This document shows, one piece after another, positions 1 through 35,895 of a stretch of 40,427 bases of DNA; position 1 is the stretch's first letter, and every line of letters starts with the position of its first letter. The notes beneath the pieces are model-generated. The model had not been told where the DNA came from and searched no databases. It was given only the letters and a program-made list of their open reading frames with translations. This stretch comes from a virus. Lineage: Duplodnaviria; Heunggongvirae; Uroviricota; Caudoviricetes. The translations under genes were made by a program, and so were the position numbers. The stretch covers positions 1-40,427 of the IMG/VR virus record IMGVR_UViG_2636416136_000013, one strand, 5' to 3'.

Positions 1-603
1 CTTCTATATGATAATCCATCATTATCCAACTCTGATATTCAGTTGTTGGCGACAAATCAATTGATTAGTTATCATGTTGTTTTAAATAATAAAATGCTTC
101 CTAATCAGTGCGCTCTTCTTCCTTTGTCGAAGTTAATTATTATTAGCGATAACTTTAGAAAGTTAGCAAAAAATGCTGATTATAATGGGCCGGAACTTTT
201 CACGCACGCACATCAATTCGTGGGACAAAATTACTTAGGATTTGGCGATTATACAATTACTGGCCAGGTACTAGATCTTGGAGGTGGTCAACCTTCTGCT
301 GTTGCCGCACATTTGGTGTTCAAGAATTTACAAGCGAATACAGTTTGGATTCGTCATTTTGTATCAAGCAACACGCAACGAGGAAGTTCAAATGTTACTG
401 CAAAATTTTTAGATGTTTCAGATCAAATTACAAATCTTGTTCCCCAACATCCAACCCAGTTTGGCAGCAACATTGGTCTTAACTATTATTATTACAATAG
501 TCAACCAACTGTAAGGCATTTCCCTGGGTTGCCAAAAAACAAACAGTATCAAATTACTCACCATATTTGTTTCATGCTGGATTTAATAGCAGGTCGTATT
601 TAA
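1..603 (+). CDS. Partial ORF, probably the C-terminal part of a protein starting upstream of the window; function unknown
   Basis: Reading frame is open from nt 1 (the track's Met at 43 is a TTG); AT-rich; the 3' end overlaps the 3' end of the convergent integrase by ~20 nt. No recognisable motifs. Confidence 0.3.
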   Translation, partial: LLYDNPSLSNSDIQLLATNQLISYHVVLNNKMLPNQCALLPLSKLIIISDNFRKLAKNADYNGPELFTHAHQFVGQNYLGFGDYTITGQVLDLGGGQPSAVAAHLVFKNLQANTVWIRHFVSSNTQRGSSNVTAKFLDVSDQITNLVPQHPTQFGSNIGLNYYYYNSQPTVRHFPGLPKNKQYQITHHICFMLDLIAGRI

Positions 604-1758
604 TAAGCTAGCGTACCATTCCATCATTACTTGTCGATCTTTAATATATTGCGCATGATTGTAAGTACCTCGAATAGAGTTCTTATCAACATGCGCAAGC
701 TGCATTTCAATCCAGGCACTTTCAAACCCATGCTCATGCAAGATGGTGCTCATGGTATGCCTGAAACCGTGACCCGTTAACCGACCGTGATAACCCAGTA
801 GTTTTATCACTTTGTTGATGCTGGCTTCGCTCATTGGTTTACTGACGTCATTCCGGCCAGGGAAAACGAGGCTGTAATTCCCTGTTATTTCTTGCAGCTT
901 TTTCAGGATATTGATCGCCTGAGTTGATAACGGAACCAGATGGGGGCGGCGTTTCTTCATCCGTTCTTTGGGGATCTCCCATAAGGCATTATCTAAATCA
1001 AACTCAGCCCATTCCGCTGCACGTAGTTCAATTGTTCGCACGCCTGTTAGCATCAACAGCTGCGTGGCGTATTTGGTAACTAAACTGCCCTGATAGTTAT
1101 CCAGAGCATTAACGAACTCGGGCAACTCGCTTTCAGTCAGGAACGGGAAGTGTTGGGTTTTAGGTTTGTTGAGTGCGATAGCTAAATCGGGTGCAAAATT
1201 ATACTTTGCTCTACCAGTGGCAACAGCATAACGAAGCACTTCACCACAGCGGCGGCGGATCTTACTGGTTTGCTCTAGCGCACCTCTTTTCTCTATTTTT
1301 TGCAGGACGGTTAGCAGTTCTAATGGTTCAATCTGCTCAATTGGGCGCTGGCCGATAAAAGGAAAAATATCCTTTTCCATACAATTGAGAACCTCTTTTG
1401 CATAACCCTCTGACCAGGTGGCTTTTTTCGATGAGTGCCATTCTCTGGCCACAGACTCAAAGCTGTTCTCATGCGCGAACTGCAAAGCAATCTTATCTGC
1501 TTTTCTGGCTTCACTTGGGTTTATCCCGTTGGCTAACATCGAACGCGCTTCATCACGTTTGGTACGTGCCTGTGCCAACGACACATCGCCATATACGCCA
1601 AAGGAAATCATCTTAGGCTTACCTGCAAAGCGATAGCGAAAACGCCAGCCTTTACTGCCCGCTGTGTCGATCAGGAGTGATAGCCCCATACCATCGTTAA
1701 GCGTATAGGGTTTGTCCTTCGGTTTTGCTCTTTTTATTTGGATGTCAGATAGCAGCAT
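583..1758 (-). CDS. int: P4-family tyrosine integrase (site-specific recombinase)
   Basis: N-terminus MLLSDIQIKRAKPKDKPYTLNDGMGL is a typical P4/CP4-57-type arm-binding start; C-terminal catalytic region has HGFRHT...LAHVDKNSIRGTYNHAQY (R..HxxR..Y). Start set at the internal Met (MLLSD), not the track's upstream Met. Confidence 0.9.
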   Translation of the reverse strand: MLLSDIQIKRAKPKDKPYTLNDGMGLSLLIDTAGSKGWRFRYRFAGKPKMISFGVYGDVSLAQARTKRDEARSMLANGINPSEARKADKIALQFAHENSFESVAREWHSSKKATWSEGYAKEVLNCMEKDIFPFIGQRPIEQIEPLELLTVLQKIEKRGALEQTSKIRRRCGEVLRYAVATGRAKYNFAPDLAIALNKPKTQHFPFLTESELPEFVNALDNYQGSLVTKYATQLLMLTGVRTIELRAAEWAEFDLDNALWEIPKERMKKRRPHLVPLSTQAINILKKLQEITGNYSLVFPGRNDVSKPMSEASINKVIKLLGYHGRLTGHGFRHTMSTILHEHGFESAWIEMQLAHVDKNSIRGTYNHAQYIKDRQVMMEWYASLLNTTCY

Positions 1759-2006
1759 GTGTATAGAAAAAAGATCGAACTCAGTTATACACAATGTTAT
1801 ACGCAAAGATGTATAGATTCCATTAGAAATAATGGTACTTTGCTGGACGAGTATAAGGAGATGATATCAGTTAAAACAGTGAGTTATGGAATTAATTGAA
1901 CTTAGTGAGAAGTGTTCATGGTGTCCCCTGCAGACATCTACTTGAGGCGGCAGGGGATTGATTGGAATGGTGTTTTTTAGATGTGAAAAATATTTTACCC
2001 GCTATT

Positions 2007-2207
2007 TTACCCATTGGCGCGGCTTAAGAGCTTATTTTTGAATTCACAATGGTCACGATATAACCATCTTGCTCGCCCGTGGATAACTTTGGCTTTTGGC
2101 AGGTCGCCGGACTTAATCCGGTCGTAGATGAAGGTTTTACCGAAGCCAGTATCGGCCATGATGAATTTCAAATCAACCAGTGAATCAGGCTGTAGTTCGT
2201 GTTGCAT
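2007..2207 (-). CDS. AlpA/TorI-family small DNA-binding protein, likely excisionase/recombination directionality factor
   Basis: 66 aa; LVDLKFIMADTGFGKTFIYDRIKSGDLPK...GRARWL matches the AlpA-type helix-turn-helix pattern; sits directly upstream of int on the same strand. Confidence 0.75.
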   Translation of the reverse strand: MQHELQPDSLVDLKFIMADTGFGKTFIYDRIKSGDLPKAKVIHGRARWLYRDHCEFKNKLLSRANG

Positions 2208-2249
2208 GAGTGCTATCTCCGAATAGGGAATCGAACCTGCAAATCAGGC

Positions 2250-2273
2250 AATAAAAAACCGCCATCAGGCGGC
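2250..2273 (-). terminator. Rho-independent terminator (minus strand)
   Basis: Stem CCGCC/GGCGG with a 4-5 nt loop, followed on the minus strand by a T-run (plus strand shows taaaaaa upstream). Confidence 0.55.
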
Positions 2274-2432
2274 TTGGTGTTCTTTCAGTTCTTCAATTCG
2301 AATATTGGTTATGTCTGCATGTGCTATCTGCGCCCATATCATCCAGTGGTCATAGCAGTCGTTGATGTTCTCCGCTTCGATAACTCTGTTGAATGGCTCT
2401 CCATTCCATTCACCTGTGACTCGGAAGTGCAT
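2265..2432 (-). CDS. Small hypothetical protein (55 aa), below the ORF-track size cutoff
   Basis: Manual minus-strand translation: MHFRVTGEWNGEPFNRVIEAENINDCYDHWMIWAQIAHADITNIRIEELKEHQAA. GGAGA Shine-Dalgarno 6 nt upstream of the ATG; flanked by terminator hairpins on both sides. Confidence 0.4.
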   Translation of the reverse strand: MHFRVTGEWNGEPFNRVIEAENINDCYDHWMIWAQIAHADITNIRIEELKEHQAA

Positions 2433-2443
2433 TTATCATCTCC

Positions 2444-2470
2444 ATAAAACAAAACTCGCCGTAGCGAGTT
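2444..2470 (-). terminator. Rho-independent terminator (minus strand) downstream of the 93-aa moron gene
   Basis: Stem AACTCGC/GCGAGTT with loop, followed on the minus strand by TTTTGTTTTAT. Confidence 0.6.
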
Positions 2471-2520
2471 CAGATAAAAGAAATCCCCGCGAGTGCGAGG
2501 ATAGTTACTTGTTCATATTA

Positions 2521-2802
2521 TTAATCGTCAATATATTTTGAGCATTGTGGGCAATCATCAATCCCACAATACGATTCATATGCATCCTTTATTGCGTCGC
2601 GGGCTTCAGTAAGAGTATTGAATAAGTTGCAGCTATTATCTTTTTGATATAGGTAAGTTCCTAATTTATAAGCAGAAGAAGCATCATTTCCGCTGTCTAA
2701 AATTACATCGTTATGGATTCTGCACCTTGCAAGAACTCCTGATCCCATAAGGGTCTGCATAGCCCATTGCTCTTGATCTTCACACAAATCATGAATGCTC
2801 AT
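2521..2802 (-). CDS. Hypothetical small Cys-containing protein (moron gene in an AT-rich segment)
   Basis: ORF 2521..2820; start set at the ATG preceded by GAGAGG (MSIHDLCEDQ...). The surrounding ~400 bp is visibly AT-rich compared with its neighbours, with an AT-rich upstream region and a downstream terminator. Confidence 0.5.
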   Translation of the reverse strand: MSIHDLCEDQEQWAMQTLMGSGVLARCRIHNDVILDSGNDASSAYKLGTYLYQKDNSCNLFNTLTEARDAIKDAYESYCGIDDCPQCSKYIDD

Positions 2803-2916
2803 TTCAACACCTCTCTTCACGTTTCACACACGTTAAGATTAACAGTGTTTTTACATGCTTTGGAAGATTTATTTTATAAAAACTCTTTTAATACAAATAG
2901 ATATAATAGTTCACTA

Positions 2917-3558
2917 TTATAGCTCCTTTAATCGAGGCGGTTCTGGTAGCGGCATCCAGTGTGATGGAATCCACGACGCACCAGGTATTACCCACCCATC
3001 ATTAGCGTCAGGATGCCCCGGGATGTAAGTCGCCCATTTCATTCGCCAGTCACCTTTCCTGTCAAACTCCCTGGCAACAAGAACGGCTGTTTTGGTATCC
3101 GGCATTCGCTCACTACAGCTTATCCAACCATCCGGAGTTACCGGATAGTTGCCGGGTTCTTTAATGTGCAAGCGAGGCTCACCATCTTTTGGCTCAGGCC
3201 ACTGGCGCTCCATGTTGATCTTCAATTTATCTTCCATAGCAGCGGTAATTTCAGCATCGCTGATGCCAGCACGGCGCTGTGCATCCCACAACAGAAACTG
3301 CATATCAGCCCACTCGCTAAGATCTTCTGGTTCGGCTGCGGCTTCCAGTGCCTCTTTTGAGAGGTGTTTCAGTGGACCAATGGGGCCAACGCAGCCAAAT
3401 GTGGAGTCAGACCATTTGGCATGCTCGTGGCGAATCTGTTCGCGTTCCAGTGATGCCAGTGCAATTCGTGCCAGTTCCATTTGTTCGCCACGAGTAAGCC
3501 CGTTTTCAAGCGGATTTTTAATGAACAATTCAATACGTTCTTTGGTAATAGTGGTCAT
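2917..3558 (-). CDS. Hypothetical early-left protein (213 aa); C-terminal W/P-rich region resembles DUF551-type phage proteins
   Basis: ORF with GGTG Shine-Dalgarno; C-terminus ...DGWVIPGASWIPSHWMPLPEPP. Domain assignment is from recollection, not a search. Confidence 0.55.
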   Translation of the reverse strand: MTTITKERIELFIKNPLENGLTRGEQMELARIALASLEREQIRHEHAKWSDSTFGCVGPIGPLKHLSKEALEAAAEPEDLSEWADMQFLLWDAQRRAGISDAEITAAMEDKLKINMERQWPEPKDGEPRLHIKEPGNYPVTPDGWISCSERMPDTKTAVLVAREFDRKGDWRMKWATYIPGHPDANDGWVIPGASWIPSHWMPLPEPPRLKEL

Positions 3559-3560
3559 GG

Positions 3561-3752
3561 CTATTTCACCTTAATCTCAACATTTCGCAGTTTTAGCTCC
3601 ACTGGCAGGTCTGACTTTCCGGTTAAAGCTAATGCGAGATTTTCTGGAGTAATGAGAGCTGTTATTGTTTTCCCCATCGCCAGACGAATAATCATTCGTA
3701 TTTCGCGATCGTCACATGCTCCTGGTCGAACAATTGATATCTGTCCGTTCAT
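3561..3752 (-). CDS. Hypothetical protein (63 aa)
   Basis: Start set at the internal Met (MNGQISIV...) with an AAGGAG Shine-Dalgarno; begins 1 nt after the stop of the upstream gene. Confidence 0.45.
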   Translation of the reverse strand: MNGQISIVRPGACDDREIRMIIRLAMGKTITALITPENLALALTGKSDLPVELKLRNVEIKVK

Positions 3753-3753
3753 C

Positions 3754-4461
3754 TCACTCTCCTTTGATGCGAATGCCAGCAAGCCAGTTTCTTATGCCGA
3801 TATATTCAGCGTTCCTGAAACCGCTTTTTACATATATAAATGGCAAGCGAAGATTGTGACCATTGGCTGCCAGGTAGTCTTTACAACCCTGTTCGGTGAA
3901 ACAGCAGGTAACGAATTCATCAATATCTTTCACAGCAACGCGCCGCCATTTTTCTGGTGGCTCTCGAAAGTTTTCGTGAAGTAGTTCGAGACGACGACTT
4001 TGGCGTTTATTGGCTTCATTGCCATCTTCATCAACCCAGACAATCCGGTCATAGTCATAATCAGCATCAACAACGATTTCGCGCTTTTGATACACACAAA
4101 ACATGGGATCTGACGTTATTCGATTGTCCTGTGTTCGAATATTTTCACCGATGATGCCAAACGAATCTGGTGCAGATTTTGTCTGCATCTCTTCGATACG
4201 TTCAGCCATCGCAGCACACTCTTCAAAGTTGCTTAATGCTTTTCGCTCCCATTCGGCGCATTGTTTTTCCAGTTCTGCTATGCGCTTACTTCCATCCGAG
4301 ATAACACCTTCGTAATACTCACGCTGCTCGTTGAGTTTTGATTCAAGTTCACCTAACTTACGGACAAGATATTCAGCGTTTGTTTCGTTAACCTTTAAAT
4401 CTCGTGGGATGCATTTACCTTTCAGAAATCCATCCATCTCAATTAGTGGCATTTGTTTCAT
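3754..4461 (-). CDS. Hypothetical early-left protein (~235 aa) with coiled-coil-like N-terminal half
   Basis: ORF 3754..4479; start set at an ATG that forms an ATGA overlap with the stop of the upstream 61-aa gene, suggesting translational coupling. Confidence 0.55.
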
Positions 4462-4640
4462 TTCTTCCCACTCCGCCACATCGCATTCAGATATTTGTTG
4501 TCATTAACAGAACCGAAACTCTTTCTCTTAAGCAATTCCTCTCTCGATGGCATTGGCTTTACGCGTTGGCGAATAATCATTTCTGCCGGAAGAATGCCGG
4601 GATTGTATGCAAGTCCTCTCATGGTAAATTCCTCAGTCAT
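4458..4640 (-). CDS. Hypothetical protein (61 aa)
   Basis: Start MTEEF... overlaps the stop of the upstream 97-aa gene (ATGACTGA); ends in an ATGA overlap with the next gene. Confidence 0.45.
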
Positions 4641-4926
4641 TACTGATAGCGCCATAGCGTGAGCGGTAATTACGCAGGCGCGGGTCAATTTCAGGGAAGT
4701 GGGTATATGTGGCTTTGCGGAATGGTCGGATTGATGTCTGGTAAATTCGCTCGCGTTCTTCTTTCTCTGCAAGCCATATACAGTGGCGAAATTCCTTTTC
4801 CTCTTTCGTTTCCTGCGGTAGAGACATTATTCGATCGTAGTTTTTTCTGAATTTATCCAGCACCTCCGATACGGAATTGCCGGAACAGCGGCGCGCGTCG
4901 TCCTCACCATACAGAGGCGCTGGCAT
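4633..4926 (-). CDS. Hypothetical 97-aa protein; possibly Abc2-like anti-RecBCD protein
   Basis: Lies downstream of erf/ssb, where P22-like phages carry abc genes; the 97-aa length and [10 protein letters not shown]...CSGNSV start recall P22 Abc2. Identity is from memory only. Confidence 0.5.
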
Positions 4927-4949
4927 AATGGAATCCTTATGTTGCTACT

Positions 4950-5333
4950 TTAGAAGGGAATTGAATCGTCGTATTCAGGATGATTTTGATGATTGCTACT
5001 TTGCTGCTGTTGGCTGTTTCCTGAAGCTGCAAATCCAATCTTCGCATTCAGTAATTCAAGAGTGATTGATTGACCATTTTGCCCCTGATAAACATCAACC
5101 CTGATGTTTTCTCCGGTAATTTCCACAATGCCACCTTCAACAAGAACACTACGGTAGTAATCCGCTTGAGCTCCCGGCTTGGCAAATACAACGGCGCTGT
5201 AGTTTGTCCACTCTTTCTTTTTTGTCTGGCGATCGTAATACTGAACGCCAGCACGGATGTTGAATCCGATATTTTCCCCGGCCTGAAACTCTCTTGCGGG
5301 CTTGTTTAGTCTTACAGTAATCGAATGTGCCAT
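4950..5333 (-). CDS. ssb: Single-stranded DNA-binding protein (short phage SSB)
   Basis: OB-fold-like N-terminal region, Q/N-rich linker and acidic C-terminal tail ...EYDDSIPF, the characteristic SSB tail. Start ATG overlaps the erf stop (TAATG). Confidence 0.75.
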   Translation of the reverse strand: MAHSITVRLNKPAREFQAGENIGFNIRAGVQYYDRQTKKKEWTNYSAVVFAKPGAQADYYRSVLVEGGIVEITGENIRVDVYQGQNGQSITLELLNAKIGFAASGNSQQQQSSNHQNHPEYDDSIPF

Positions 5334-5938
5334 TAAGCAGTTGCCCCTTCTAATTCGTCTCGTCTGATGTTGTAAACGTCCTGCGCTTTGTGCTGCTCCG
5401 GTGTGCCTTCGAGCATCTTCCACGCTTTGGCGAACGCCTGTTTAAGCTCTTCTACGGTGTTTTTCTGCATTGCTGCGTCAGTGAATGCTTTTAGAACCTG
5501 TTCAGGTGTAGGTGATGGTTTTGATTGCTTTGCTGCTGCGTTCTGCTGATGTTTATGCTCGTCTGTATCTGCATCTTTCGCATCATCAATGCCGAACAAA
5601 CCATTGAGGCAATACTTGCGCGCATAAGAGCTTGTAGCTCCCGTAACTTGTGCAGAATCCATTCCTTTCTTGCTTTCTTCCTCTCGTGCAAGAGCGGTTG
5701 CCGTATGGCTGCTTTCGCCATCGGTAATAGTTGCCGTGGCTTTCACGTAATACCGATCACCAATCAGCACAACTTCATCGCTGATTGATAAAAACAGGCC
5801 ATTCAGTAGCGGCTTAACGCCTTCAAGAATGTCTTCGCAGCTTCTGTATTTATATTTACCGAATGAGTTGTACTGATTCTTTGGCGCGTTCAGATTCTCC
5901 TGAATAGCTGCCAGTCTTGCGTAAAACTCTTTGCTCAT
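5333..5938 (-). CDS. erf: Erf-family single-strand annealing recombinase
   Basis: MSKEFYARLAAIQENLNAPKNQYNSFGKYKYRSCEDILEGVKPLL... closely recalls P22 Erf; start set at MSKEF rather than the track's upstream Met. Confidence 0.85.
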   Translation of the reverse strand: MSKEFYARLAAIQENLNAPKNQYNSFGKYKYRSCEDILEGVKPLLNGLFLSISDEVVLIGDRYYVKATATITDGESSHTATALAREEESKKGMDSAQVTGATSSYARKYCLNGLFGIDDAKDADTDEHKHQQNAAAKQSKPSPTPEQVLKAFTDAAMQKNTVEELKQAFAKAWKMLEGTPEQHKAQDVYNIRRDELEGATA

Positions 5939-6039
5939 ATGTTTGATCTCAGAATGGACACGGCCCAAGGAAATAACGCTGATTTAATACTTCGACTCGG
6001 GACAAATTAAGGCATACCCGCATTCCTTCGCGGTCACCA

Positions 6040-6198
6040 TTATGGCGATACCAGAGAGCTTTCTGCGTGTACATGCGCCTCTGTAACTTGCTCTCCTTCA
6101 CTGTGGTTGCAAGTGACATGAATATCTCCTTCGTTACCGATTAATTCTTTCATCTGACGAATGAATTCTTCGTCTGACCAGTTATCTGTAAAACTCAT
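6040..6198 (-). CDS. Hypothetical small protein (52 aa) in the kil position
   Basis: ATG forms an ATGA overlap with the cIII stop; no recognisable similarity to lambda Kil. Confidence 0.35.
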   Translation of the reverse strand: MSFTDNWSDEEFIRQMKELIGNEGDIHVTCNHSEGEQVTEAHVHAESSLVSP

Positions 6199-6365
6199 GG
6201 ACGGCCTTGTTGTTTCAAAATATCCCAAAGCTTTTCGAGCAAACTTTTCATTCTTGGTTGTTTAAAGTCTGCTCCGGTTAAAATATTTTTTCGTGAATGC
6301 TGTACCGATAAAATCGGGTTGAAAGGGCGAACCGATGCCGCCCCTGCAATAGCGAACTGTTGCAT
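6195..6365 (-). CDS. cIII: CIII-like protein (protease inhibitor that stabilises CII)
   Basis: MQQFAIAG... start and ...SLLEKLWDILKQQGRP match the lambda CIII pattern (MQYAIAG..., ...LIDILNQPG); AGGAG Shine-Dalgarno 7 nt upstream. Confidence 0.7.
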   Translation of the reverse strand: MQQFAIAGAASVRPFNPILSVQHSRKNILTGADFKQPRMKSLLEKLWDILKQQGRP

Positions 6366-6430
6366 AGGATGCTCCTTCTGTTTGATTGCATAACGAAAAC
6401 GCCTCAAGTGAAGCGTTATTGGTATGCATA

Positions 6431-6456
6431 TAAAAAAGCCCTCACATTGGAGGGCA
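6431..6456 (-). terminator. Rho-independent terminator (minus strand), tL1-like, between the 107-aa gene and cIII
   Basis: Stem GCCCTC/GAGGGC followed on the minus strand by TTTTTTAT. Confidence 0.55.
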
Positions 6457-6582
6457 AAGAAGATTTCCAATAATCAGAACAAGTCGGCTCCTGTTTAGTT
6501 ACGAGCGACATTGCTCCGTGTATTCACTCGTTGGAATGAATACACAGTGCAGTATTTATTCTGTTGTTTATGCCAAAAATAA

Positions 6583-6604
6583 AGGCCGACTATGCGGCCT
6601 TATC
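6583..6604 (-). terminator. Candidate terminator hairpin (minus strand) overlapping the 3' end of the 107-aa gene
   Basis: Stem AGGCCG/CGGCCT followed on the minus strand by TTATTTTTGG. Confidence 0.45.
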
Positions 6605-6913
6605 TACATTCCTGAACCAAACGCAGATCGGACCGTCTTCTGTATCGTGAATCGAACCAACAAACCATCCTTCTCCATCTGGCATGCTTGGCTCCCATCC
6701 GCTGATGTTTGGATTCCCATCTTCAAAATACGAGTCAATTACCGTTTGATTGTTGTCGTTTTCCATTTCAACAATTGATGATTCAATGCCATGCTGCTTG
6801 CAGAAAGATCTGAACTCATCAACTGAAATTACCTCTCTATCCCCAAACAGGTTGGCGTATTCTGGGTGCGTCCAGTAGCCATCCTCGCTTCGCTCTACTA
6901 CTAATGCTTCCAT
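6590..6913 (-). CDS. Hypothetical highly acidic protein (107 aa), first gene after N
   Basis: About 23 Asp/Glu against about 6 Lys/Arg in 107 residues, counted by eye; occupies the position where lambda encodes ral. Confidence 0.6.
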   Translation of the reverse strand: MEALVVERSEDGYWTHPEYANLFGDREVISVDEFRSFCKQHGIESSIVEMENDNNQTVIDSYFEDGNPNISGWEPSMPDGEGWFVGSIHDTEDGPICVWFRNVDKAA

Positions 6914-6921
6914 ATCTCACC

Positions 6922-7248
6922 TCAAATAAGTGGTTTGCTGCCTAATTTCATTTTCTGGCGACCAACACAAGTCATACCCATTTCACTGCGTGGCTTGCTG
7001 TACCATGTGCGCTGATTCTTGCGCTCAATACGTTGCAGGTTGCTTTCAATCTGTTCGTGGTATTCAGCCAGCACCGTAAGGTCTATCGGATTCAGTGCGC
7101 TTTCTACTCGTGATTTCGGTTTGCGATTCAGCGAGAGAATAGGGCGGTTAACTGGTTTTGCGCTTACCCCAACCAACAGGGGATTTGCTGCTTTCCATTG
7201 AGCCTGTTTCTCTGCGCGACGTTCGCGGCGGCGTGCTTGTGCATCCAT
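6922..7248 (-). CDS. N: Antitermination protein N
   Basis: MDAQARRRERRAEKQAQWKAANPLLVGVSAKPVNRPILSLNRKPKSRVESALNPIDLTVLAEYH... is near-identical to lambda N as recalled (arginine-rich boxB-binding motif at the N-terminus). Start set at MDAQ. Confidence 0.92.
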   Translation of the reverse strand: MDAQARRRERRAEKQAQWKAANPLLVGVSAKPVNRPILSLNRKPKSRVESALNPIDLTVLAEYHEQIESNLQRIERKNQRTWYSKPRSEMGMTCVGRQKMKLGSKPLI

Positions 7249-7354
7249 CTGGATTCTCCTGTCAGTTAGCTTTGAGTAACGCGCCGTGATGCTTATCTCC
7301 ACGGTTGCTGTCTTGCAGCTGCATTTCGCGCTACTCAAAGCCTTCTGCTTTGAA

Positions 7355-7395
7355 TGCTGCCCTTCTTCAGGGCTAAATTTTTAAGAGCCTCACCT
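7355..7395 (-). promoter_or_regulatory. nutL site (boxA and boxB)
   Basis: Minus-strand reading gives GGCTCTTAAAAATTTAGCCCTGAAGAAGGGC: boxA-like CTCTTAA plus the boxB hairpin GCCCTGAAGAAGGGC (plus 7359..7373), matching lambda nutL. Confidence 0.8.
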
Positions 7396-7428
7396 TCAAT
7401 GGTGGTCAGTGCGTCCTGCTGATGGCTA

Positions 7429-7457
7429 AATAGTACGATTTGTACTTTATCGAGTCA
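7429..7457 (-). promoter_or_regulatory. Candidate PL promoter with overlapping OL operator
   Basis: Minus strand reads TTGACT, 17-nt spacer, TACTAT; the spacer and -10 overlap a perfect palindrome AGTAC-N5-GTACT (plus 7431..7445). Confidence 0.6.
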
Positions 7458-7522
7458 ATACAAAATGTTCTAAATATAATTAGTTTTTTATAACGCTTTG
7501 TATTTAATGGGTTTATATTTTG

Positions 7523-7553
7523 GAAAAAGAAAACCCGGCGCTGAGGCCGGGTT
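7523..7553 (-). terminator. Rho-independent terminator ending the cI / 348-aa gene transcript
   Basis: Stem CCCGGC/GCCGGG with 6-nt loop followed on the minus strand by TTTTCTTTTT, just downstream of the 348-aa ORF stop. Confidence 0.7.
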
Positions 7554-7562
7554 TGGAGTGCA

Positions 7563-8609
7563 TCACTCTGGTTCGCTGGGGAATATATTTATCAATTGCC
7601 CTGTTGAAATGTGCCCATTTTCTACAACCTCTAGGTATGAAATTTCAACAGTTGATTCTTTGGCTACAGCATTCAAAAACTCAAGAAGCTCATCAGTAGA
7701 TGTTATGTCGGCTGAGGTTTTTATGGTGAAAGATTCACCATTTGAAACCCTTATGACGTCAATATTTATGTCCTGATTTGTTTCTCCCGAGCGACGAACG
7801 CCAGTGACATAAAAGTTATCTCTTCTAGTTTCCTTTTTTCGATCAATTGATTGTCTTTGGTTTAAGGTATTCAACTGTTCTCTATTTACCACTCTCTGAC
7901 CAATTGTTACCCTCTCAACTGACGAGTCTTGAGCAAGCTTTTTAAGCAACTTGCTTTTACCATCCTCGCCGTGAGCCAGAACCTCTCTGCTAATGTTTGT
8001 TTGACCGCTAATCAACAACTTGAGCACATTGTCTTGTGCTTCGTTTACCGCTTTGGTGCTTTTTTCCACCAATTGCACCTGAGAATCTTGGTCATGTCGC
8101 TGTGTTTCGTAGTACTCATTGATCCACTTATAGCCTACCGTGCTGGCAGCTAAGACGATAGCGGCGACGGCGCATAGTGCTTGCCTTCCTGTCATTTTGC
8201 CTATCGCTTGAGTAAACACTGTCACCACTCCGTTTACAATCGGATCTGAGTCACCATCCGCTTGGCTTGAGCCTTCGCTTATTCGGTAGACAATATCCAG
8301 CAAACCTTTCTCTGCATCTTTTAGCTTCTGCCGATTATGAGTGCTGTGACTGACTACCGTAAATGCTTTTTGTATTTCATGCGTAAGCTCTGCCATACCA
8401 AAAAGCATTGACGCAGTCAATGAAGAATTATATCTATTTGGATCGCCTTTTACATTAATATTGATCTTTGGCCATCCACTGAAAACTACGTTAGGGAATG
8501 TGAAGTCGCTTGAGTCGATATCCTTCCTTCCGAGCATTTCTGTTACAAAAGATACAAAGTCGTCTTCTGACTTGATAACATATTGCGCAGGTTGATCAAT
8601 CGCTGACAT
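7563..8609 (-). CDS. Hypothetical 348-aa protein with one central hydrophobic segment, in the rexAB-equivalent position
   Basis: Starts 25 nt downstream of the cI stop on the same strand, with AAGGA Shine-Dalgarno 7 nt upstream; hydrophobic stretch ALCAVAAIVLAASTVGY mid-protein; followed by a terminator. No recognisable family. Confidence 0.7.
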   Translation of the reverse strand: MSAIDQPAQYVIKSEDDFVSFVTEMLGRKDIDSSDFTFPNVVFSGWPKININVKGDPNRYNSSLTASMLFGMAELTHEIQKAFTVVSHSTHNRQKLKDAEKGLLDIVYRISEGSSQADGDSDPIVNGVVTVFTQAIGKMTGRQALCAVAAIVLAASTVGYKWINEYYETQRHDQDSQVQLVEKSTKAVNEAQDNVLKLLISGQTNISREVLAHGEDGKSKLLKKLAQDSSVERVTIGQRVVNREQLNTLNQRQSIDRKKETRRDNFYVTGVRRSGETNQDINIDVIRVSNGESFTIKTSADITSTDELLEFLNAVAKESTVEISYLEVVENGHISTGQLINIFPSEPE

Positions 8610-8634
8610 TCTTAATCCTTAACATCCATTCCTA

Positions 8635-9288
8635 TCACCCAAACGTCTCTTCTGGCCACTGGCTGGCGATAACTTTCCCTACAACGGAACAGCTATCATT
8701 GCATGGGATCATTGGATATTGCGGGTTTAGTGGTTGTAGGAACACCTGACCGCTATCCCTGATCAGTTTCTTGAAGGTAAACTCGTCACCACCAAGTCTG
8801 GCTATGCAGAAATCACCTGGCTCAACAGCCTGCTCAGGGTCAACGAGAATTAACATCCCGTCAGGAAAGCTTGGCTTGGATCCTGTTGGTGCGGTCATGG
8901 AATTACCTTCAACTTCAAGCCAAAACGCACAATCACTGGCTTTTTTGGTTGTGCTGACCCATCTCTCCGCATCACCTTTGGTAAAGGTTCTAAGCTCAGG
9001 CGAGAACATCCCGGCCTGAACATGAGAAAAAACAGGGTACTCATATTGTTTTTTAACGGGGGCAGATGAGTATTCGCCAACAGGTGAAAATGTACCGTCG
9101 TGGTTGAATGAGACGTTATCAATACCAAGGTATTTAAACACCACACCAATCTCGTCAAGAGATGGATGACGAGATCCGCGCAACCAGTGACCAATTCCAC
9201 CCTGCGTCATACCAAGCTCTTCAGCCAACTTCTCTTGAGTTATGCCGAGCTCTTTCATTCTGGATCTAGCCAGTTCATACCATTTCAT
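8635..9288 (-). CDS. cI: CI-type prophage repressor (lambda-identical C-terminal domain, distinct HTH N-terminal domain)
   Basis: C-terminal ~130 aa ([38 protein letters not shown]...[12 protein letters not shown]) matches lambda CI including the Ala-Gly cleavage site and Ser/Lys catalytic residues; N-terminal HTH ([35 protein letters not shown]) differs. Start set at MKWYE (AGGA 7 nt upstream). Confidence 0.92.
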
Positions 9289-9350
9289 TTTCATATCCTT
9301 ATTATTACGCTCTGTACTAAAACCATCCATGCACAAGATGTATTTTTTGT

Positions 9351-9379
9351 TTGCATTCCAAAAGTACATATCGTATTAT
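9351..9379 (+). promoter_or_regulatory. Candidate PR promoter with overlapping OR operator
   Basis: TTGCAT (9351..9356), 17-nt spacer, TATTAT (9374..9379); the spacer contains AAGTACATATCGTATT, resembling the OL palindrome. Confidence 0.6.
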
Positions 9380-9405
9380 TGTCTCATGGTTACTATGGAG
9401 GGCAT

Positions 9406-9621
9406 ATGAGCAACCTACGAAAATATCGAGAGTCACTGAATATCTCTCAAACAACACTTGCTAAGGCGGTTGGATGCACACAGGGAGCTATTGGGCATTG
9501 GGAATCTGGTCGTCGCTTCCCAGACCTTAAAACATGCCGCGCTCTTGTTGCATGCCTAAACAAGTTAGGCGCAAAAGTCAGTCTTGATGACGTGTTCCCT
9601 CCGGAACACAAAGCCGCTTAA
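9406..9621 (+). CDS. cro: Cro-like HTH repressor (XRE family)
   Basis: 71 aa, MSNLRKYRESLNISQTTLAKAVGCTQGAIGHWESGRRFPD...; GGAGGG Shine-Dalgarno; divergent from cI across the operator region. Confidence 0.75.
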   Translation: MSNLRKYRESLNISQTTLAKAVGCTQGAIGHWESGRRFPDLKTCRALVACLNKLGAKVSLDDVFPPEHKAA

Positions 9622-9629
9622 GACATTCC

Positions 9630-9661
9630 CGCTCTTACACATTCCAGCCCTGAAAAAGGGC
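9630..9661 (+). promoter_or_regulatory. nutR site (boxA CGCTCTTAC and boxB GCCCTGAAAAAGGGC)
   Basis: Sequence between cro and cII matches lambda nutR boxA/boxB. Confidence 0.85.
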
Positions 9662-9740
9662 ATCAAATTAAACCACACCTATGGTGTATGCATTTATTTG
9701 CATACATTCAATCAATTGTTATCTAAGGAAATACTTACAT

Positions 9741-10034
9741 ATGGTTCGTGCAAACAAACGCAACGAGGCTCTAAGAATCGAGAGTGCGTTGCTTAACAAA
9801 ATCGCAATGCTTGGAACTGAGAAGACAGCGGAAGCTGTGGGAGTTGATAAGTCGCAGATCAGCAGGTGGAAGAGGGACTGGATTCCAAAGTTCTCAATGC
9901 TGCTTGCTGTTCTTGAATGGGGTGTCGTCGACGACGACATGGCTCGATTGGCACGACAAGTTGCTTCGATTCTCACCAATAAAAAACGCCCGGCGGCAAC
10001 CGAGCGTTCTGAACAAATACAAATGGAATTTTAA
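9741..10034 (+). CDS. cII: Transcriptional activator CII
   Basis: MVRANKRNEALRIESALLNKIAMLGTEKTAEAVGVDKSQISRWKRDWIPKFSMLLAVLEWGVVDDDMARLARQVASILTNKKRPAATERSEQIQMEF is essentially lambda CII; the upstream sequence ttgcatacattcaatcaattgttatctaaggaaatacttacat also matches lambda. Confidence 0.95.
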   Translation: MVRANKRNEALRIESALLNKIAMLGTEKTAEAVGVDKSQISRWKRDWIPKFSMLLAVLEWGVVDDDMARLARQVASILTNKKRPAATERSEQIQMEF

Positions 10035-10056
10035 TAACATCCAACTAGGCAATTAT

Positions 10057-10329
10057 ATGCGAAACAAAGGCTTTAATCCACCTGATACACACAAAGAAGC
10101 TAAGCGTTTGCGCTTCCTTCGTTCCATTGATGAAAGAACTCAAATCTCTTTTGTGAAAGTTGCCAGAACTGAGCTTCTGAAGGCTGAGGCGAGGGCGTTG
10201 CTCCCGTCTCTACCAAAAGAGGAGGGATATACGTTCATTCCAAACGCATTTCTGGAAAAGCTGCTCAAAGAAGACATATCCGTAAGTCAGTTTAACGATG
10301 TTCTTAAGGTCTTTCGTCAAGGCAGGTAG
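10057..10329 (+). CDS. Hypothetical protein (90 aa) between cII and the replication genes
   Basis: ORF frame 9784..10329, start set at MRNKGFNPPDTHKEAKRLRFL... just downstream of the cII stop. Confidence 0.5.
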   Translation: MRNKGFNPPDTHKEAKRLRFLRSIDERTQISFVKVARTELLKAEARALLPSLPKEEGYTFIPNAFLEKLLKEDISVSQFNDVLKVFRQGR

Positions 10330-10331
10330 TT

Positions 10332-11279
10332 ATGAGCAATACAGCAAAAATCTACGATTTCAGCGCCGCACACGAGCGCAGGAGCAACAGGATGGAGAAC
10401 CAGAAAACTGGTTACATTCCGTTGTACCGGAGCATTCTGAAACAGTCATGGGCGAAAGATGTTTATCTTCGCACCCTGTGGGAAAACCTTCTCCTGAATG
10501 CCGCCAGAAAGCCATACAAAGCGAATTTCAAAGGTCATGAATGGCATCTGCAACCCGGTCAACTGGTTGTGACAGCAGCTGATTTAGGTCTTCAGTTATG
10601 CGACAGGCATGGCAAGCCGGCAAGCCGTGATCAGGTTGAGCGGATGCTTCAGGTTTTTGTGAAAGAGGGGATGATCTCCATTGATGGGGAGAAGCAAAAA
10701 GGTCGTGTGATAACCATCACAAATTACCATGAATATGCTCAAAAAATGGACAATTCACCCGCACATGAAGCCGCACAAACAACCGCACATGAAGCCGCAC
10801 ATGATGAAGCCAGTAATGGCGCGGCTTTCAGCGCACATGCCGCACATGAAAGCGCACATGAAGCCACACAAACAACCGCACATCATGAACAAGAAGGTAT
10901 TAACAAGAATATAAATAATACCCCCCTACCCCCCAATGGGGGAGGCGATGGGCAGGTTAAACCTGAACGTCGCAAGGCAGAACGAATCGACTACGAATCC
11001 TTCCTGAACGCCTACAACACCGAAGTCGGTGACAGACTGCCACACGCTGTTGCGGTCAACGAGAAACGCAAACGCCGCCTGAAGAAAATCATCCCGCAAC
11101 TGAAAACGCCAAACGTGGACGGTTTCAGAGCGTATGTCAGGGCGTTTGTACATCAGGCCAAGCCGTTTTACTTCGGAGACAACGACACTGGCTGGACGGC
11201 AGATTTTGATTACCTGCTGAGGGAAGATTCGTTAACGGGAGTTCGGGAAGGGAAGTTTGCAGACAGGGGGATTGCATGA
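10332..11279 (+). CDS. O: Replication initiation protein (O-like; internal repeat-encoded linker)
   Basis: Located where lambdoid phages encode O / P22 gene 18; [10 protein letters not shown] start resembles lambda O; central region encodes repeated AHEA/TTAH units from DNA direct repeats; stop overlaps the helicase start (ATGA). Confidence 0.75.
10758..10899 (+). repeat. Iteron-like direct repeats inside the O-like gene (candidate replication origin) followed by an AT-rich stretch
   Basis: Multiple copies of CGCACATGAAGCC / GCACATG units within ~140 bp, then aacaagaatataaataata and a C-rich/G-rich inverted element; the same layout as ori-lambda inside O. Confidence 0.6.
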
Positions 11280-13669
11280 GACAGGATATCGAAGCGAGCG
11301 TTATCGGTGGCCTGCTGATTGGTGGATTAACTCCAACCGCCAGTGACGTTCTGGCAACGCTTGAGCCGGAAGCGTTTTCAATTCCGCTCTACAGGAAAGC
11401 CTTCGAAGTTATCCGTAAGCAGGCGAGAAACAGAAATCTAATCGACGCGCTGATGGTTGCCGAGGCGTGCGGAGAGGAGCATTTCACGTCAATCCTGATG
11501 ACCAGCAAAAACTGCCCGAGTACCGCAAACCTGAAGGGATATGCCGGAATGGTCGCGGATAACTATCACCGCCGTCTGGTGCTGGAAATCATGGATGAAA
11601 TGCGTGAACCAATTCAGAGCGGAACCATCGACGCGTCGAGTCAGGCGATGGATGAACTTGTAAAGCGTCTCTCAGCTATCAGAAAGCCCCGTGACGAGGT
11701 TAAACCGGTACGCTTAGGGGAAATCATCACCGACTACACTGACACGCTTGACAGGCGTCTGAGGAACGGAGAAGAGTCAGATACCCTGAAGACCGGAATC
11801 GAAGAACTTGATGCCATCACCGGAGGGATGAACGCGGAAGACCTGGTGATAATCGCTGCTCGTCCTGGTATGGGGAAAGCAATGGCGCTAAGCGAAGGGA
11901 TTTTACTTGCAGATGGCACCTGGACTACTCACGGAGAAGTCAAAATTGGCGATCGCATCGCGTCAATAGACGGGCTTCCTTCGGAGGTAATTGGCGTCTT
12001 CCCACAAGGGAAGAAATTCACATATTTAGTCACCTTTGAAGACGGACGTAGCGTGAAATGTGCCGACAACCACTTATGGGAAATTTCATCATCAAGATTT
12101 ACTGGTAAACGCGTTGTTGATACTGATGCGCTGGCTGGGATGCTACAAAAAACACGTTATCAGGGAAGAATAAGAGTGCCATCCTTGACCGGAGACTTTG
12201 GTAAAAATATTTCCCTTGATGGTTGGGTTATTGGTGCTCTACTTGGTGACGGTTCGTTGATAAAAGGCATCAAATTCACCAACTCGGAAGAATATGTCCT
12301 GAGCCGCATGAGTGATGCAATTGCACCATTGCGACTGGTTAAGGTAGGAGAGAATGATTATTTGATAAGCAACCAAAAAGGCCAGAAGAACCCACTATTG
12401 GACAAACTACGTGGCATTGGGGTGATCGGGAAAGGTGCGTCCGAGAAGGAAATCCCAGCAGAAATTTTTAGTGCTAGCAAAGAAATACGTACCGGTGTTT
12501 TAACTGGCCTTCTCGAGACAGATGGCTGGGTTGAGAAGTCCGGATGCATCCGCTTTAGTTCATCCAGTCAGAAATTAGCTAAAGGATTAGTAAGGCTTGT
12601 TAGATCTTTAGGTGGAACCGCCAAAGAATCCAGCAGGACGGGAATAGTTTACACGTACAAAGGAGAGAAGCATGACGGACTTGATGCACACATGGTCAGC
12701 ATGAAGTTGCCATCATCTTTGATAGAGCAAATTCACTCACCACGTTTACGCAAAAATCTCGGGATTAACAGGCTTGGCGACCTTGGTGTGGGTATCAAAT
12801 CGGTTGAAGTTGTTGAGCCAGAAGAGTGTCTCTGCATCATGGTAAGCCATCCTAGCCATCTCTATGTGACAACGGATTACATCGTTACGCACAATACGGA
12901 ACTGGCGCTGAAGATTGCCGAAGGCGTTGCAAGCCGCGTTATTCCTGGTTCTGACGTCCGGCGCGGGGTATTGATTTTCTCAATGGAAATGAGCGCATTG
13001 CAGATTGCAGAGCGAAGCATTGCCAACGCCGGGAGGATGTCGGTTAGCGTACTGCGAAATCCTGCATCGATGGATGACGAAGGCTGGGCGCGCGTTGCTA
13101 ACGGCATGAGTCAGCTTGCAGATTTGGATGTATGGGTAGTCGATGCCTCGCGGTTATCGGTCGAAGAAATACGCTCAATCGCAGAACGGCACAAACAGGA
13201 AAATCCAAACCTGTCACTCATCATGGCGGATTATCTTGGCCTGATTGAGAAGCCGAAAGCAGATCGCAACGACCTCGCAATTGCTCACATCTCCGGAAGC
13301 CTTAAGGCGATGGCGAAAGACCTGAAAACGCCTGTGATCTCCCTAAGTCAGCTTTCGCGCGATGTTGAGAAGCGACCAAACAAACGCCCGACAAACGCAG
13401 ATTTGCGTGATTCAGGAAGCATTGAACAGGACGCAGACTCAATCATCATGCTCTATCGGGAAGCGGTATATGACGAGAACAGTAGCGCCGCGCCATTTGC
13501 TGAAATCATCGTGACGAAAAACCGTTTTGGCTCACTTGGTACGGTTTACCAGCGGTTCTGTAACGGACACTTTGTTGCATGTGACCAGGATGAAGCCAGA
13601 CAGATTTGCACAGCATCAAATGCACCTGCTGCGCGTGGCAGACGATATGCACAAGGGGCTGACGTATGA
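11276..13669 (+). CDS. DnaB-family replicative helicase interrupted by an intein
   Basis: Walker A ...[11 protein letters not shown] is split from [10 protein letters not shown]...; C-terminal DnaB motifs follow ([49 protein letters not shown]). The exteins alone total ~458 aa, normal for DnaB. Confidence 0.9.
11879..12895 (+). mobile_element. Intein (~339 aa) with a LAGLIDADG homing-endonuclease domain inserted in the helicase P-loop
   Basis: Block A-like A(M)[13 protein letters not shown] after GMGK; block B NHLW; two LAGLIDADG motifs ([13 protein letters not shown] and [14 protein letters not shown]); block F ECLCIMV; block G YIVTHN followed by Thr. The exact N-terminal boundary is uncertain by about 2 residues. 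Confidence 0.8.
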
Positions 13670-13693
13670 CCATCTACATCACTGAGCTAATAA

Positions 13694-13727
13694 CAGGCCT
13701 GCTGGTAATCGCAGGCCTTTTTATTTT
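13694..13727 (+). terminator. Rho-independent terminator after the helicase gene
   Basis: Stem CAGGCCTGC/GCAGGCCTT with loop, followed by TTTTTATTTT. Confidence 0.7.
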
Positions 13728-13741
13728 GGGGAGAGGGAAGT

Positions 13742-14722: not shown

Positions 14723-14892
14723 TGCGATGTTATCGGTGCGGTGAATGCAAAGAAGATAACCGCTTCCGACCAAATCAACCTTACTGGAATCGATGGTGTC
14801 TCCGGTGTGAAAGAACACCAACAGGGGTGTTACCACTACCGCAGGAAAAGGAGGACGTGTGGCGAGACAGCGACGAAGTATCACCGACATAA
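14719..14892 (+). CDS. ninD: NinD (small zinc-ribbon-like protein)
   Basis: [34 protein letters not shown]...; start overlaps the ninB stop. Confidence 0.75.
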
Positions 14893-35874: not shown

Positions 35875-35895
35875 TGTAGGGCCACAATCCTATCG

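Follow-up and report, generated by a model that had tools for sequence, protein, structure and literature searches.

Whether the two small genes and the hairpins at positions 2244..2920 of the window (the whole 40,427-nucleotide stretch of viral DNA that was analysed) are independently transcribed modules or an ordinary part of a phage operon is the question raised by this locus. The preliminary description had read them as two morons, each bounded by a terminator; the moron concept itself is said to go back to Juhala, Hendrix and colleagues in 2000. We find that both small genes and all three hairpins have already been described for phage lambda and, since the genes are known accessory genes that lambda carries in its exo-xis region with conserved terminators, the observation is real but ordinary and holds nothing novel. 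It carries little weight as a discovery, the genes, their order and the hairpins being known from lambda and the structure of the 93-residue protein being deposited as PDB identifier 2M7A. Its value is corrective: an ORF that had been called unannotated is lambda orf55, the predicted terminators behave as linkers tied to their positions in the lambdoid early-left operon and not as terminators private to two morons, and the integrase next to xis is that of a neighbouring element. What both genes are, how the hairpins and their U-tracts are built and where the mosaic boundaries lie is shown here.

Setting of the locus

The prophage in the window is a P22/HK620-like prophage of E. coli, with the corresponding tailspike, Abc2 and argW-type Int/TorI, and it carries a lambda-type PL, nutL and N. 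All ORFs and hairpins of 2244..2920 are on the minus strand, where the order in the direction of transcription is ea8.5, t3, t4, orf55, t5 and pI/xis. The region probably forms the far end, away from the promoter, of this prophage's early-left (PL) operon and, judging from sequence homology, likely corresponds to the final stretch of lambda's 'exo-xis region', whose genes, ea8.5 and orf55 included, are transcribed from PL (PMC8614690, PMC4195576).

Immediately 3' of the two small genes lies xis (2007..2207, minus strand), a TorI-type excisionase gene homologous to HK620 hkaC. The HK620 record labels hkaC 'response regulator inhibitor TorI', and RefSeq uses torI in E. coli genomes. Pairwise BLAST aligns 1918..2311 of the window with HK620 at 98.7% DNA identity, and the promoter (1664-1702) and the cII protein_bind feature (1689-1701) annotated in HK620, carried over through this alignment with an offset of 550, place a putative cII-activated promoter of the pI type at 2214..2252 (minus strand), abutting the U-tract of t5, and within it a putative cII box TTGCCTGATTTGC at 2251..2239 (minus strand), both by homology. 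In 1700..3700, Rfam at E<=1 shows no known RNA family: the only two matches, STnc130 with 25 bits where the cut-off is 55, and mir-277, are below threshold and due to chance.

The Ea8.5-family gene

The 93-residue ORF of the preliminary description is present at 2521..2802(-). The ORF list gives it as 2521..2820(-), with 99 residues from a GTG, but the ATG at 2802 is the real start because the 93-residue form can be aligned over its whole length with both lambda Ea8.5 and PDB identifier 2M7A; a Shine-Dalgarno sequence, GAGAGGTG (2815..2809), lies about 5 nt 5' of this ATG. The protein matches Pfam PF20735 (Lambda_ea8_5), whose curated cut-off is 27, with 58.7 bits, its residues 8-93 covering profile positions 1-90 of 90, and phrog_6325 with an E-value of 5.6e-57, and is named 'Ea8.5 family phage-derived protein' in RefSeq (WP_000022062). 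It aligns with lambda Ea8.5 without gaps over all 93 residues at 41% identity, and is 100% identical to residues 9-101 of 2M7A, the Ea8.5 NMR structure (PMC8614690). By homology it is classed as a zinc-binding hybrid of a homeodomain-like fold and a zinc finger, and C27, H30, C84 and C87, which are unchanged in lambda Ea8.5 when the two are aligned, are the candidate zinc-binding residues.

A word-indexed protein search with Ea8.5 retrieved near-identical E. coli proteins only, and broader sampling was taken from 79 IMG/VR loci. Three Ea8.5 alleles with 41-44% identity to the window protein are found among these loci. The gene lies in the distal PL operon between genes of the ea22/eaA type and orf55-xis, an order shared with lambda and the 79 loci. 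Lambda ea8.5 represses paQ and, weakly, pI (PMC7093339), the reported phenotypes being those of multicopy plasmids and of the lambda protein, which is 41% identical to that of the window. From this literature on the lambda homologue, the window protein would be a zinc-binding homeodomain-like regulator that lowers the activity of cII-dependent promoters (paQ, weakly pI) and may in this way favour lytic growth. A defence function, named in the preliminary description as frequent in morons, receives no backing from PADLOC-DB 2.0, in which neither Ea8.5 nor the Orf55 protein matches any family at E<=0.01; NCBIfam likewise has no match for either.

The orf55 gene

The 55-residue ORF at 2265..2432(-) is the orthologue of lambda lambdap35/orf55, with 98.2% identity over 55/55 residues and the same t4 and t5 flanks as in lambda. 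It matches phrog_676 with an E-value of 1.7e-39, has its own RefSeq entry (WP_000545737) and occurs in 87 phage records; in a set of 5.8 billion proteins its homologues are narrowly distributed (E. coli, E. albertii and Klebsiella). It starts with ATG and has the good Shine-Dalgarno sequence that had been attributed to it (GGAG, 7 nt before the ATG). A chance origin of the two ORFs was considered and rejected, given that a lambda gene in one case and a solved structure in the other are matched at 98-100%, and that 41% identity is kept without gaps over 93 residues.

The high-confidence AF2 model of Orf55 (pLDDT 90.5) shows a beta-beta-alpha-beta fold of roughly 50 residues. A Foldseek search with this model against the PDB gave no match at E<=0.001. 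The best match is T7 Gp2 (PDB identifiers 4LK0, 4LLG and 2WNM; TM 0.57-0.63, RMSD 2.0-2.5 Å, 21-23% identity), but with E=0.05 the match is not significant, and similar scores are reached by the epsilon/YkzG and p56 folds. The resemblance to Gp2, reproduced here with the AF2 model and Foldseek, has been published (PMC8614690), along with the finding that, of two arginines critical to Gp2 function, only one is conserved, and a docking model in which Orf55 binds the beta' jaw of RNA polymerase. Together with this literature, the model suggests that Orf55 may be a small beta-beta-alpha-beta protein weakly resembling the RNA polymerase inhibitor T7 Gp2.

Predicted terminators and mosaic structure

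Three intrinsic terminators are predicted on the minus strand. The first, t3, spans 2473..2502 (stem 2502..2483, U-rich tail 2482..2473; -12.1 kcal/mol, z -3.8), t4 spans 2442..2471 (stem 2471..2452, U-tract 2451..2442; -11.9 kcal/mol, z -4.5) and t5 spans 2246..2275 (stem 2275..2256, U-tract 2255..2246; -13.0 kcal/mol, z -2.4). All three have GC-rich stems of 8 bp and loops of 4 nt followed by 5-7 U in the next 8-9 nt, the full canonical anatomy of an intrinsic terminator, with the U-tract on the transcribed strand only. A terminator scan of 1700..3700 returned 6 sites against 2.1 +/- 1.3 in shuffled sequences. The hairpins placed earlier at 2444..2470 and 2250..2273 correspond to the scan sites 2471..2452 and 2275..2256, respectively, whereas the third, t3 at 2502..2483, had been missed. 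The stop codon of orf55 (TGA, 2267..2265) does lie within a hairpin, in the t5 loop UGAU, and the U-tract of t4 runs directly into the orf55 Shine-Dalgarno sequence; the 88-nt gap 5' of orf55 is wholly filled by t3 and t4. The three hairpins are those predicted as t3, t4 and t5 in lambda, with t5 identical to the lambda entry (PMC4195576, Table 4).

The terminator blocks are more widespread than the gene between them here: 260 phage records contain the t3/t4 block and 157 the t5 block, against only 87 with orf55. Across the three Ea8.5 variants, t3 begins 18 nt past the Ea8.5 stop codon in 78 of the 79 IMG/VR loci, and among the compared loci homology ends right past the t5 U-tract and right before t3. 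Two mosaic units are delimited. The unit t3-t4-orf55-t5 (2250..2507, minus strand) is nearly unchanged in lambda and in phage N7 and has sharp boundaries at both ends. The ea8.5 cassette (2508..2935, minus strand), which comprises the leader and the coding sequence together with the closing 19 nt of the gene upstream, is absent from N7, for which pairwise BLAST matches 1918..2507 and resumes at 2936..2961, so that 2507 is joined almost directly to 2936.

Since t3 and t4 persist in N7, Sf6 and VT2-Sakai, all of which are without ea8.5, they are not the 93-residue gene's own terminators, although t4 had been taken as such. In Sf6 and VT2-Sakai both terminator blocks flank an L0063-type gene, and in HK620 and phage L t5 is kept after hkaD/eaG in the absence of orf55. 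The ea8.5 cassette is present in some phages and absent from others; the orf55 slot is always occupied, by alternative genes in other phages, which points to replacement and not insertion. The comparison indicates that the terminators go with the position and not with a particular gene, and we regard the terminator blocks as the probable conserved mosaic linkers between exchangeable gene cassettes. Such intergenic blocks would serve as homology patches at which lambdoid phages recombine, and recombination there would bring different genes into the slots (orf55, L0063/Sf6 gene 19, hkaD/eaG, and ea8.5 present or absent). The arrangement ea8.5-t3-t4-orf55-t5 is kept across lambda-like and P22-like phages and three Ea8.5 alleles, a modest argument that Ea8.5 and Orf55 work together as a pair.

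The correspondence with the lambda exo-xis region extends from the order ea8.5-t3-t4-orf55-t5-pI/xis (Bloch et al. 2014, PMC4195576; Donaldson 2021, PMC8614690) to the 88-nt gap, the start of t3 18 nt past the ea8.5 stop, the 98% identical orf55, hairpins that are identical or one pair-preserving base apart, and the lambda-type PL and N/nutL. The window differs in having another Ea8.5 allele, 41% identical and the one solved as 2M7A, a non-homologous and shorter ea8.5 leader (114 nt against 191 nt), and a DUF550/DUF551 (EaA-like) gene as the upstream neighbour in place of ea22, and its phage is P22/HK620-like and not a lambda-like siphovirus.

Boundary or linker sequences of lambdoid mosaicism are reportedly treated in the HK620 and Sf6 genome papers, and the Sf6 GenBank record (AF547987) annotates boundary sequences as 'bsq'. 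Like these, the blocks in the window are short, 95-100% conserved intergenic stretches whose flanking genes differ and at whose edges homology breaks. Unlike Sf6 bsq, they are themselves predicted terminators; bsq2 of Sf6 covers xis and pI and ends beside the t5 block.

Proposed transcription from PL with antitermination

Upstream of ea8.5 and orf55, on the same strand, lie PL (TTGACT-17-TACTAT, 7458..7430, located by sequence reading and promoter scans), nutL with a boxA-like element GCTCTTAA (7388..7381) and a boxB GCCCTGAAGAAGGGC (7373..7359), both recognized by sequence reading, and a lambda-type N gene (7248..6922; Pfam PF11438, 87.7 bits), all on the minus strand. The genes from 2917 to about 6100 abut or overlap each other, and the only other cluster of minus-strand terminators in the PL operon, at 6601..6398, is just past N. 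On this arrangement, the RNA of ea8.5 and orf55 would come chiefly from the PL transcript made once infection or induction has taken place, and the lambda-type N/nutL system, 4.5 kb upstream, would let RNA polymerase pass the predicted terminators t3-t5. Without N, t3-t5 would halt stray or unmodified transcription before it reached pI-xis and, in the circular form of the phage, int. Having no candidate promoter and lying behind two terminators, orf55 would be expressed only under antitermination. Taken as a whole, this model of a PL operon with read-through by N and terminator-bearing linkers is the account that we consider likely.

Base composition and the moron reading

Windowed calculation bears out the AT-rich segment noted at about 2520..2920: its GC content is 34.4%, where the mean of the window is 46.9% (sd 4.1, 400-bp windows), and no other 400-bp stretch in the 40.4 kb is lower. 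The coding sequence of ea8.5 has 37.9% GC and the 114-nt gap 5' of it 27.2%, whereas the coding sequence of orf55, at 46.4%, is average for the window. Thus, only one of the two supposed modules, ea8.5, deviates in composition. The gap is an AT-rich (27% GC) non-coding leader (2803..2916, minus strand) that contrasts with the otherwise tightly packed operon and is unexplained by a pure operon model. All three Ea8.5 variants have long AT-rich leaders (114-202 nt) and coding sequences of low GC (38.7% in lambda), and the leader and coding sequence of the window type stay together at >=99% identity regardless of the upstream gene.

These features would be expected if the ea8.5 cassette (2508..2935) were a true moron, that is, an AT-rich gene gained by horizontal transfer whose 114-nt leader contains a sigma-70 promoter of its own, whose transcription from the repressed prophage ends at t3/t4 and which confers a regulatory or host-interaction function on the lysogen. 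Such an origin would also suit the insertion of the cassette relative to N7 and the best promoter candidate upstream of the gene, TTAAAG (2931..2926) and TATTAT (2908..2903) with a 17-nt spacer, whose score of 9.6 in a scan with -35/-10 position-weight matrices is in the top 0.01% of window positions. Further, lambda ea8.5 is reported to be expressed and translated in uninduced lysogens in the part of PMC4195576 that cites Liu et al. 2013; as far as that account goes, translation in the lysogen requires a PL-independent promoter, which fits a moron reading of ea8.5. Upstream of ea8.5, however, no sigma-70 promoter rises above composition-matched chance, as 38% of shuffles equal the best score, and a stricter scan of 1700..3700 found 0 sites. 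The lambda ea8.5 leader likewise has no strong promoter above chance, and alignment of the three leader types revealed no shared regulatory motif, the window leader not being convincingly homologous to the lambda type. Moreover, t3 and t4 remain where ea8.5 is missing, PADLOC gives no match, and the known phenotypes are pro-lytic regulatory effects and not lysogenic conversion. We therefore consider it unlikely that the cassette is a moron in this sense.

Compared with the morons of lambdoid phages, then, the ea8.5 cassette is similar in being extra DNA of clearly lower GC between genes that are adjacent in N7 and in being followed by terminators, but it is without a demonstrable promoter, the terminators after it are shared linkers retained by phages that lack the gene, and both ea8.5 and orf55 lie inside the PL operon on the same strand. 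With its average GC and an 88-nt gap that holds two terminators and no candidate promoter, orf55 shows neither the promoter nor the composition of a moron. The two-moron reading finds partial support, for ea8.5 alone: in its extra, AT-rich DNA relative to N7, its non-coding leader and the reported expression of lambda ea8.5 in uninduced lysogens.

A bolder combination holds that the three terminators exist on account of a dangerous gene between them, Orf55 being a Gp2-like inhibitor of host RNA polymerase that the two terminators before it keep silent in the lysogen and that only N antitermination sets free, and that the Ea8.5 allele is an autonomously transcribed, H-NS-sensitive moron tuning cII-dependent promoters from the prophage state. 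We judge this distinctly improbable. Against its first half, the same terminator linkers flank unrelated genes (L0063, eaG) in other phages, which suggests that it is the pI-xis-int junction, and not any single cargo, that the fence protects.

It is more improbable still that the t3-t5 hairpins are no terminators in vivo but RNA-stability or processing elements, or recombination linkers with an incidental terminator-like shape. The terminator status of the lambda homologues does rest on ARNold predictions (Bloch et al. 2014, PMC4195576), ea8.5 and int are reported at comparable, lowered levels after lambda infection, and the blocks clearly mark mosaic junctions. Against this, each of the three hairpins combines a GC-rich stem of 8 bp with a tetraloop and is followed at once by a U-tract, confined to the transcribed strand, the most frequent stem substitutions among the compared loci preserve pairing (the commonest t4 variant changes U-A to U.G), and the t5-homologous block is labelled 'terminator' in the record of Salmonella phage L. 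That orf55, too, is an independent moron equipped with a promoter and a terminator of its own is scarcely credible: the good Shine-Dalgarno sequence, t5 at its stop codon and the movement of 2250..2507 as a block with sharp ends are set against its average GC, an upstream gap taken up by t3 and t4 in which the best promoter score is 6.1 and overlaps t3, and the same linkers around unrelated genes in other phages.

The integrase beside xis

The preliminary description had set the two small genes next to an int/AlpA cassette. The integrase adjoining xis belongs to a neighbouring element and not to this prophage: an HK620-type int lies at the right end of the window, and the left int, beside xis, is only 45% identical. 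An int beside xis would also follow if the window were a circularly permuted phage genome; this was rejected, as the ends of the window do not join in frame and the HK620-type int is at the right end. These observations, with the 45% identity of the left int, indicate an integrated prophage beside a second element.

Identity of the two small genes

The features of segment 2244-2920 are real and non-random, but they have already been described; they form the lambda-type series ea8.5 - t3 - t4 - orf55 - t5, in which t3, t4 and t5 are hairpins named after predicted lambda terminators. The order is that of lambda, here inside a P22-like prophage. Both ORFs of the preliminary description are present in the ORF listing, and good Shine-Dalgarno sequences precede them, the one before the 55-aa ORF being evident, as had been described, on reading the sequence. 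The 93-aa ORF (2521..2802, minus strand) scores 58.7 bits in the Pfam family PF20735 (Lambda_ea8_5), whose cut-off is 27, and aligns with lambda Ea8.5 without gaps over all 93 residues at 41% identity, with Cys27, His30, Cys84 and Cys87 conserved. Its sequence is that of PDB chain 2M7A, the Ea8.5 NMR structure, at 100% identity. Alignments with both proteins run from end to end of the 93-aa form; for this reason the start at ATG 2802 is the correct one, and the 99-aa GTG-start version called mechanically is rejected as wrong. Supplied on a plasmid, lambda ea8.5 represses paQ, and weakly pI, and favours lytic growth (PMC7093339, PMC3824215).

The 55-aa ORF (2265..2432, minus strand) had been taken to be unannotated; it is orf55 of lambda (lambdap35), with 98.2% identity, and matches phrog_676, a family of unknown function. 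RefSeq names the pair 'Ea8.5 family phage-derived protein' and 'hypothetical protein'. Orf55 has been modelled earlier as a T7 Gp2-like RNA polymerase modulator (PMC8614690). Our AlphaFold model (pLDDT 90.5) has a beta-beta-alpha-beta topology, for which Foldseek returns T7 Gp2 as the best PDB match (E=0.05, TM 0.57-0.63), with epsilon/YkzG and p56 close behind; a Gp2-like nature of Orf55 may serve as a lead rather than as a membership.

The Ea8.5 allele of the window does not occur among 50,697 phage records, where the only matches are lambda-type genes at 41% identity. Of 5,426 complete E. coli genomes, 111 carry the allele at 99% identity or more; there it resides in prophages of both lambda-like and P22-like type, which differ in their integrases and in the gene upstream. 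It is also present in about 50 IMG/VR contigs. Truncations by IS2 or deletions in some E. coli genomes show decay in defective prophages; the copy in ACN002 is cut by IS2, and a deletion in KSC64 joins ea8.5 to a DUF2528 remnant.

Predicted terminator hairpins and operon context

The terminator scan recovered the two hairpins described previously as terminator-like minus-strand sites at 2471..2452 (t4) and 2275..2256 (t5), together with a third, overlooked site at 2502..2483 (t3); 2 kb of this region contain 6 terminator-like sites, compared with 2.1 +/- 1.3 in shuffled sequences. Each of the three hairpins has an 8-bp stem and a tetraloop followed immediately by a U-tract, and the folding energies of t3, t4 and t5 are -12.1, -11.9 and -13.0 kcal/mol (z -3.8, -4.5 and -2.4), respectively. 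As had been noted, the stop codon of orf55 lies inside a hairpin, namely in the loop of t5. When the window is aligned with HK620, lambda and N7, it is nearly identical to the latter two over a stretch that opens shortly ahead of t3, includes orf55 and closes with the U-tract of t5. The same three hairpin sequences are the predicted lambda terminators t3, t4 and t5 in Table 4 of Bloch et al. 2014 (PMC4195576), and the t5 homologue is labelled 'terminator' in the record of Salmonella phage L.

The region is 96-98% identical at the DNA level to the P22-like (Lederbergvirus) coliphages HK620, N7, Kapi1 and Sf6. Diagnostic genes include those for a P22-type tailspike, head-binding domain (36987..39161), Abc2 (4633..4926), a cI-type repressor (8635..9369) and a lambda-type N protein (7248..6922, minus strand; PF11438). 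Upstream of N, a PL-like promoter, TTGACT-17-TACTAT (7458..7430, minus strand), and nutL with the exact lambda boxB GCCCTGAAGAAGGGC (7373..7359, minus strand) could be read from the sequence. From about 6900 down to 2007 every gene lies on the minus strand, mostly abutting or overlapping. Thus, segment 2244-2920 lies in the N-antiterminated early-left operon, at the end far from the promoter. Directly after the U-tract of t5, homology with the HK620 annotation places a cII box and the pI promoter (2251..2214). By analogy with lambda, N-modified RNA polymerase from PL would, after infection or induction, pass the proximal terminator cluster (6601..6398) and also the distal t3-t5, permitting expression of ea8.5, orf55 and xis; unmodified polymerase would presumably halt at t3, t4 or t5, leaving orf55 silent and pI-xis insulated.

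Mosaic boundaries

Pairwise BLAST of the window against related phages reveals sharp junctions. In phage N7 the match covers 1918..2507 and starts again at 2936; the missing part, 2508..2935, holds the final 19 nt of the upstream gene together with the 114-nt leader and the CDS of ea8.5. In the comparison for presence or absence of modules in relatives, proposed earlier as a check, the ea8.5 unit is extra DNA relative to N7. The linker blocks, the conserved stretches around t3/t4 and t5, are both kept by Sf6 and VT2-Sakai (2250..2316 and 2435..2507), with an L0063-type gene replacing orf55 between them. HK620 and phage L keep 2249..2311 alone, that is, t5 with a 3' remnant of orf55, behind hkaD/eaG. 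Counts in the phage collection are 260 records for the t3/t4 block, 157 for the t5 block and only 87 for orf55, whose carriers include lambda, 434, HK022 and a number of P22-like phages. Over about 80 loci, homology ends directly after the t5 U-tract and just before t3, and the commonest stem substitutions, e.g. U-A to U.G, preserve pairing. As the blocks are kept without orf55 or ea8.5 and homology breaks at their edges, the predicted terminators are tied to where they lie, on the approach to pI-xis, rather than to one gene; these putative terminators also coincide with recombination junctions.

In phages with another gene in the slot, the last ~45 nt of orf55 coding sequence before t5 survive (window 2249..2316 against HK620 1699..1761, phage L 1501..1563 and VT2-Sakai 1134..1200). 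This retained 3' end is a fossil of recombination within the gene.

Are ea8.5 and orf55 morons?

Both units had been read as morons of deviant base composition, each with its own promoter and terminator. The windowed GC run upholds the composition for the ea8.5 unit only: at 34.4% GC, 2520..2920 is the lowest of all 400-bp stretches in the 40.4 kb (mean 46.9%, sd 4.1), whereas orf55 (46.4%) is average. The 88-nt gap upstream of orf55 is filled by t3 and t4 and yielded no promoter candidate, and the label is not defensible for this gene.

For ea8.5 the label is partly defensible: the gene is extra DNA relative to N7 and low in GC, but a promoter of its own is not demonstrable and the t3/t4 linkers, of which t4 had been regarded as its own terminator, are not private to it. 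Among 79 IMG/VR loci carrying the window allele or two alleles 41-44% identical to it, t3 begins 18 nt past the ea8.5 stop in 78, followed by t4 in 70 and orf55 in 60. All three alleles have a CDS of 38-40% GC and an AT-rich leader of 114-202 nt, and alignment of window-type with lambda-type leaders gave no convincing homology. A strict sigma-70 promoter scan of 1700..3700 found 0 sites, compared with 4.8 +/- 2.3 in shuffles. The weight-matrix candidate TTAAAG-17-TATTAT (2931..2903; score 9.6) is among the best 0.01% of positions in the window, yet 38% of composition-matched shuffles score as high; the lambda ea8.5 leader scanned no better. The single point favouring autonomy comes from the literature: PMC4195576 states, with reference to Liu et al. 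2013, that uninduced lysogens express lambda ea8.5. PADLOC defence models gave no match for Ea8.5 or Orf55.

Strict sigma-70-like sites are also scarce across 1..20000 (19 against 29 +/- 5 in shuffles), which suggests selection against spurious promoters in early regions. Antisense to ea8.5 lies a promoter-like site, TTGTTC-17-TATATT (2509..2537, plus strand), which with a score of 11.1 belongs to the 25 best in the window and may be a chance product of AT-rich sequence or an antisense RNA start.

Neighbouring elements and other observations

What had been called an int/AlpA cassette is the junction of two elements. The left integrase beside xis (583..1758, minus strand) is 45% identical to HK620 Int, whereas the integrase belonging to the prophage itself shares 98% identity with HK620 Int and lies at the right end (39270..40427), as expected since the HK620/KplE1-type attP sits between int and xis; HK620 homology starts exactly at the attP-core position, ~1918. 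The left flank, 1..1918, on the far side of the attP-core homologue, has the appearance of another element integrated in tandem. A partial sce7725-family gene (1..603, plus strand; NF033831, 2.4e-42; phrog_34524) runs off the window start.

Low-GC sequence at 34800..36990, between a 743-aa gene and the tailspike, contains several small ORFs on both strands; the three tested (34999..35445 and 35896..36285, minus strand; 36391..36822, plus strand) have no Pfam match. Between the cI-type repressor and PL, in the slot that rexAB occupies in lambda, lies a 348-aa ORF (7563..8609, minus strand) of ~38-40% GC with its own strong terminator (7554..7531). It matches phrog_6191 (unknown function) alone, with no Pfam or PADLOC match, and, compared with ea8.5 and orf55, is the stronger candidate for an accessory or defence gene expressed from the prophage.
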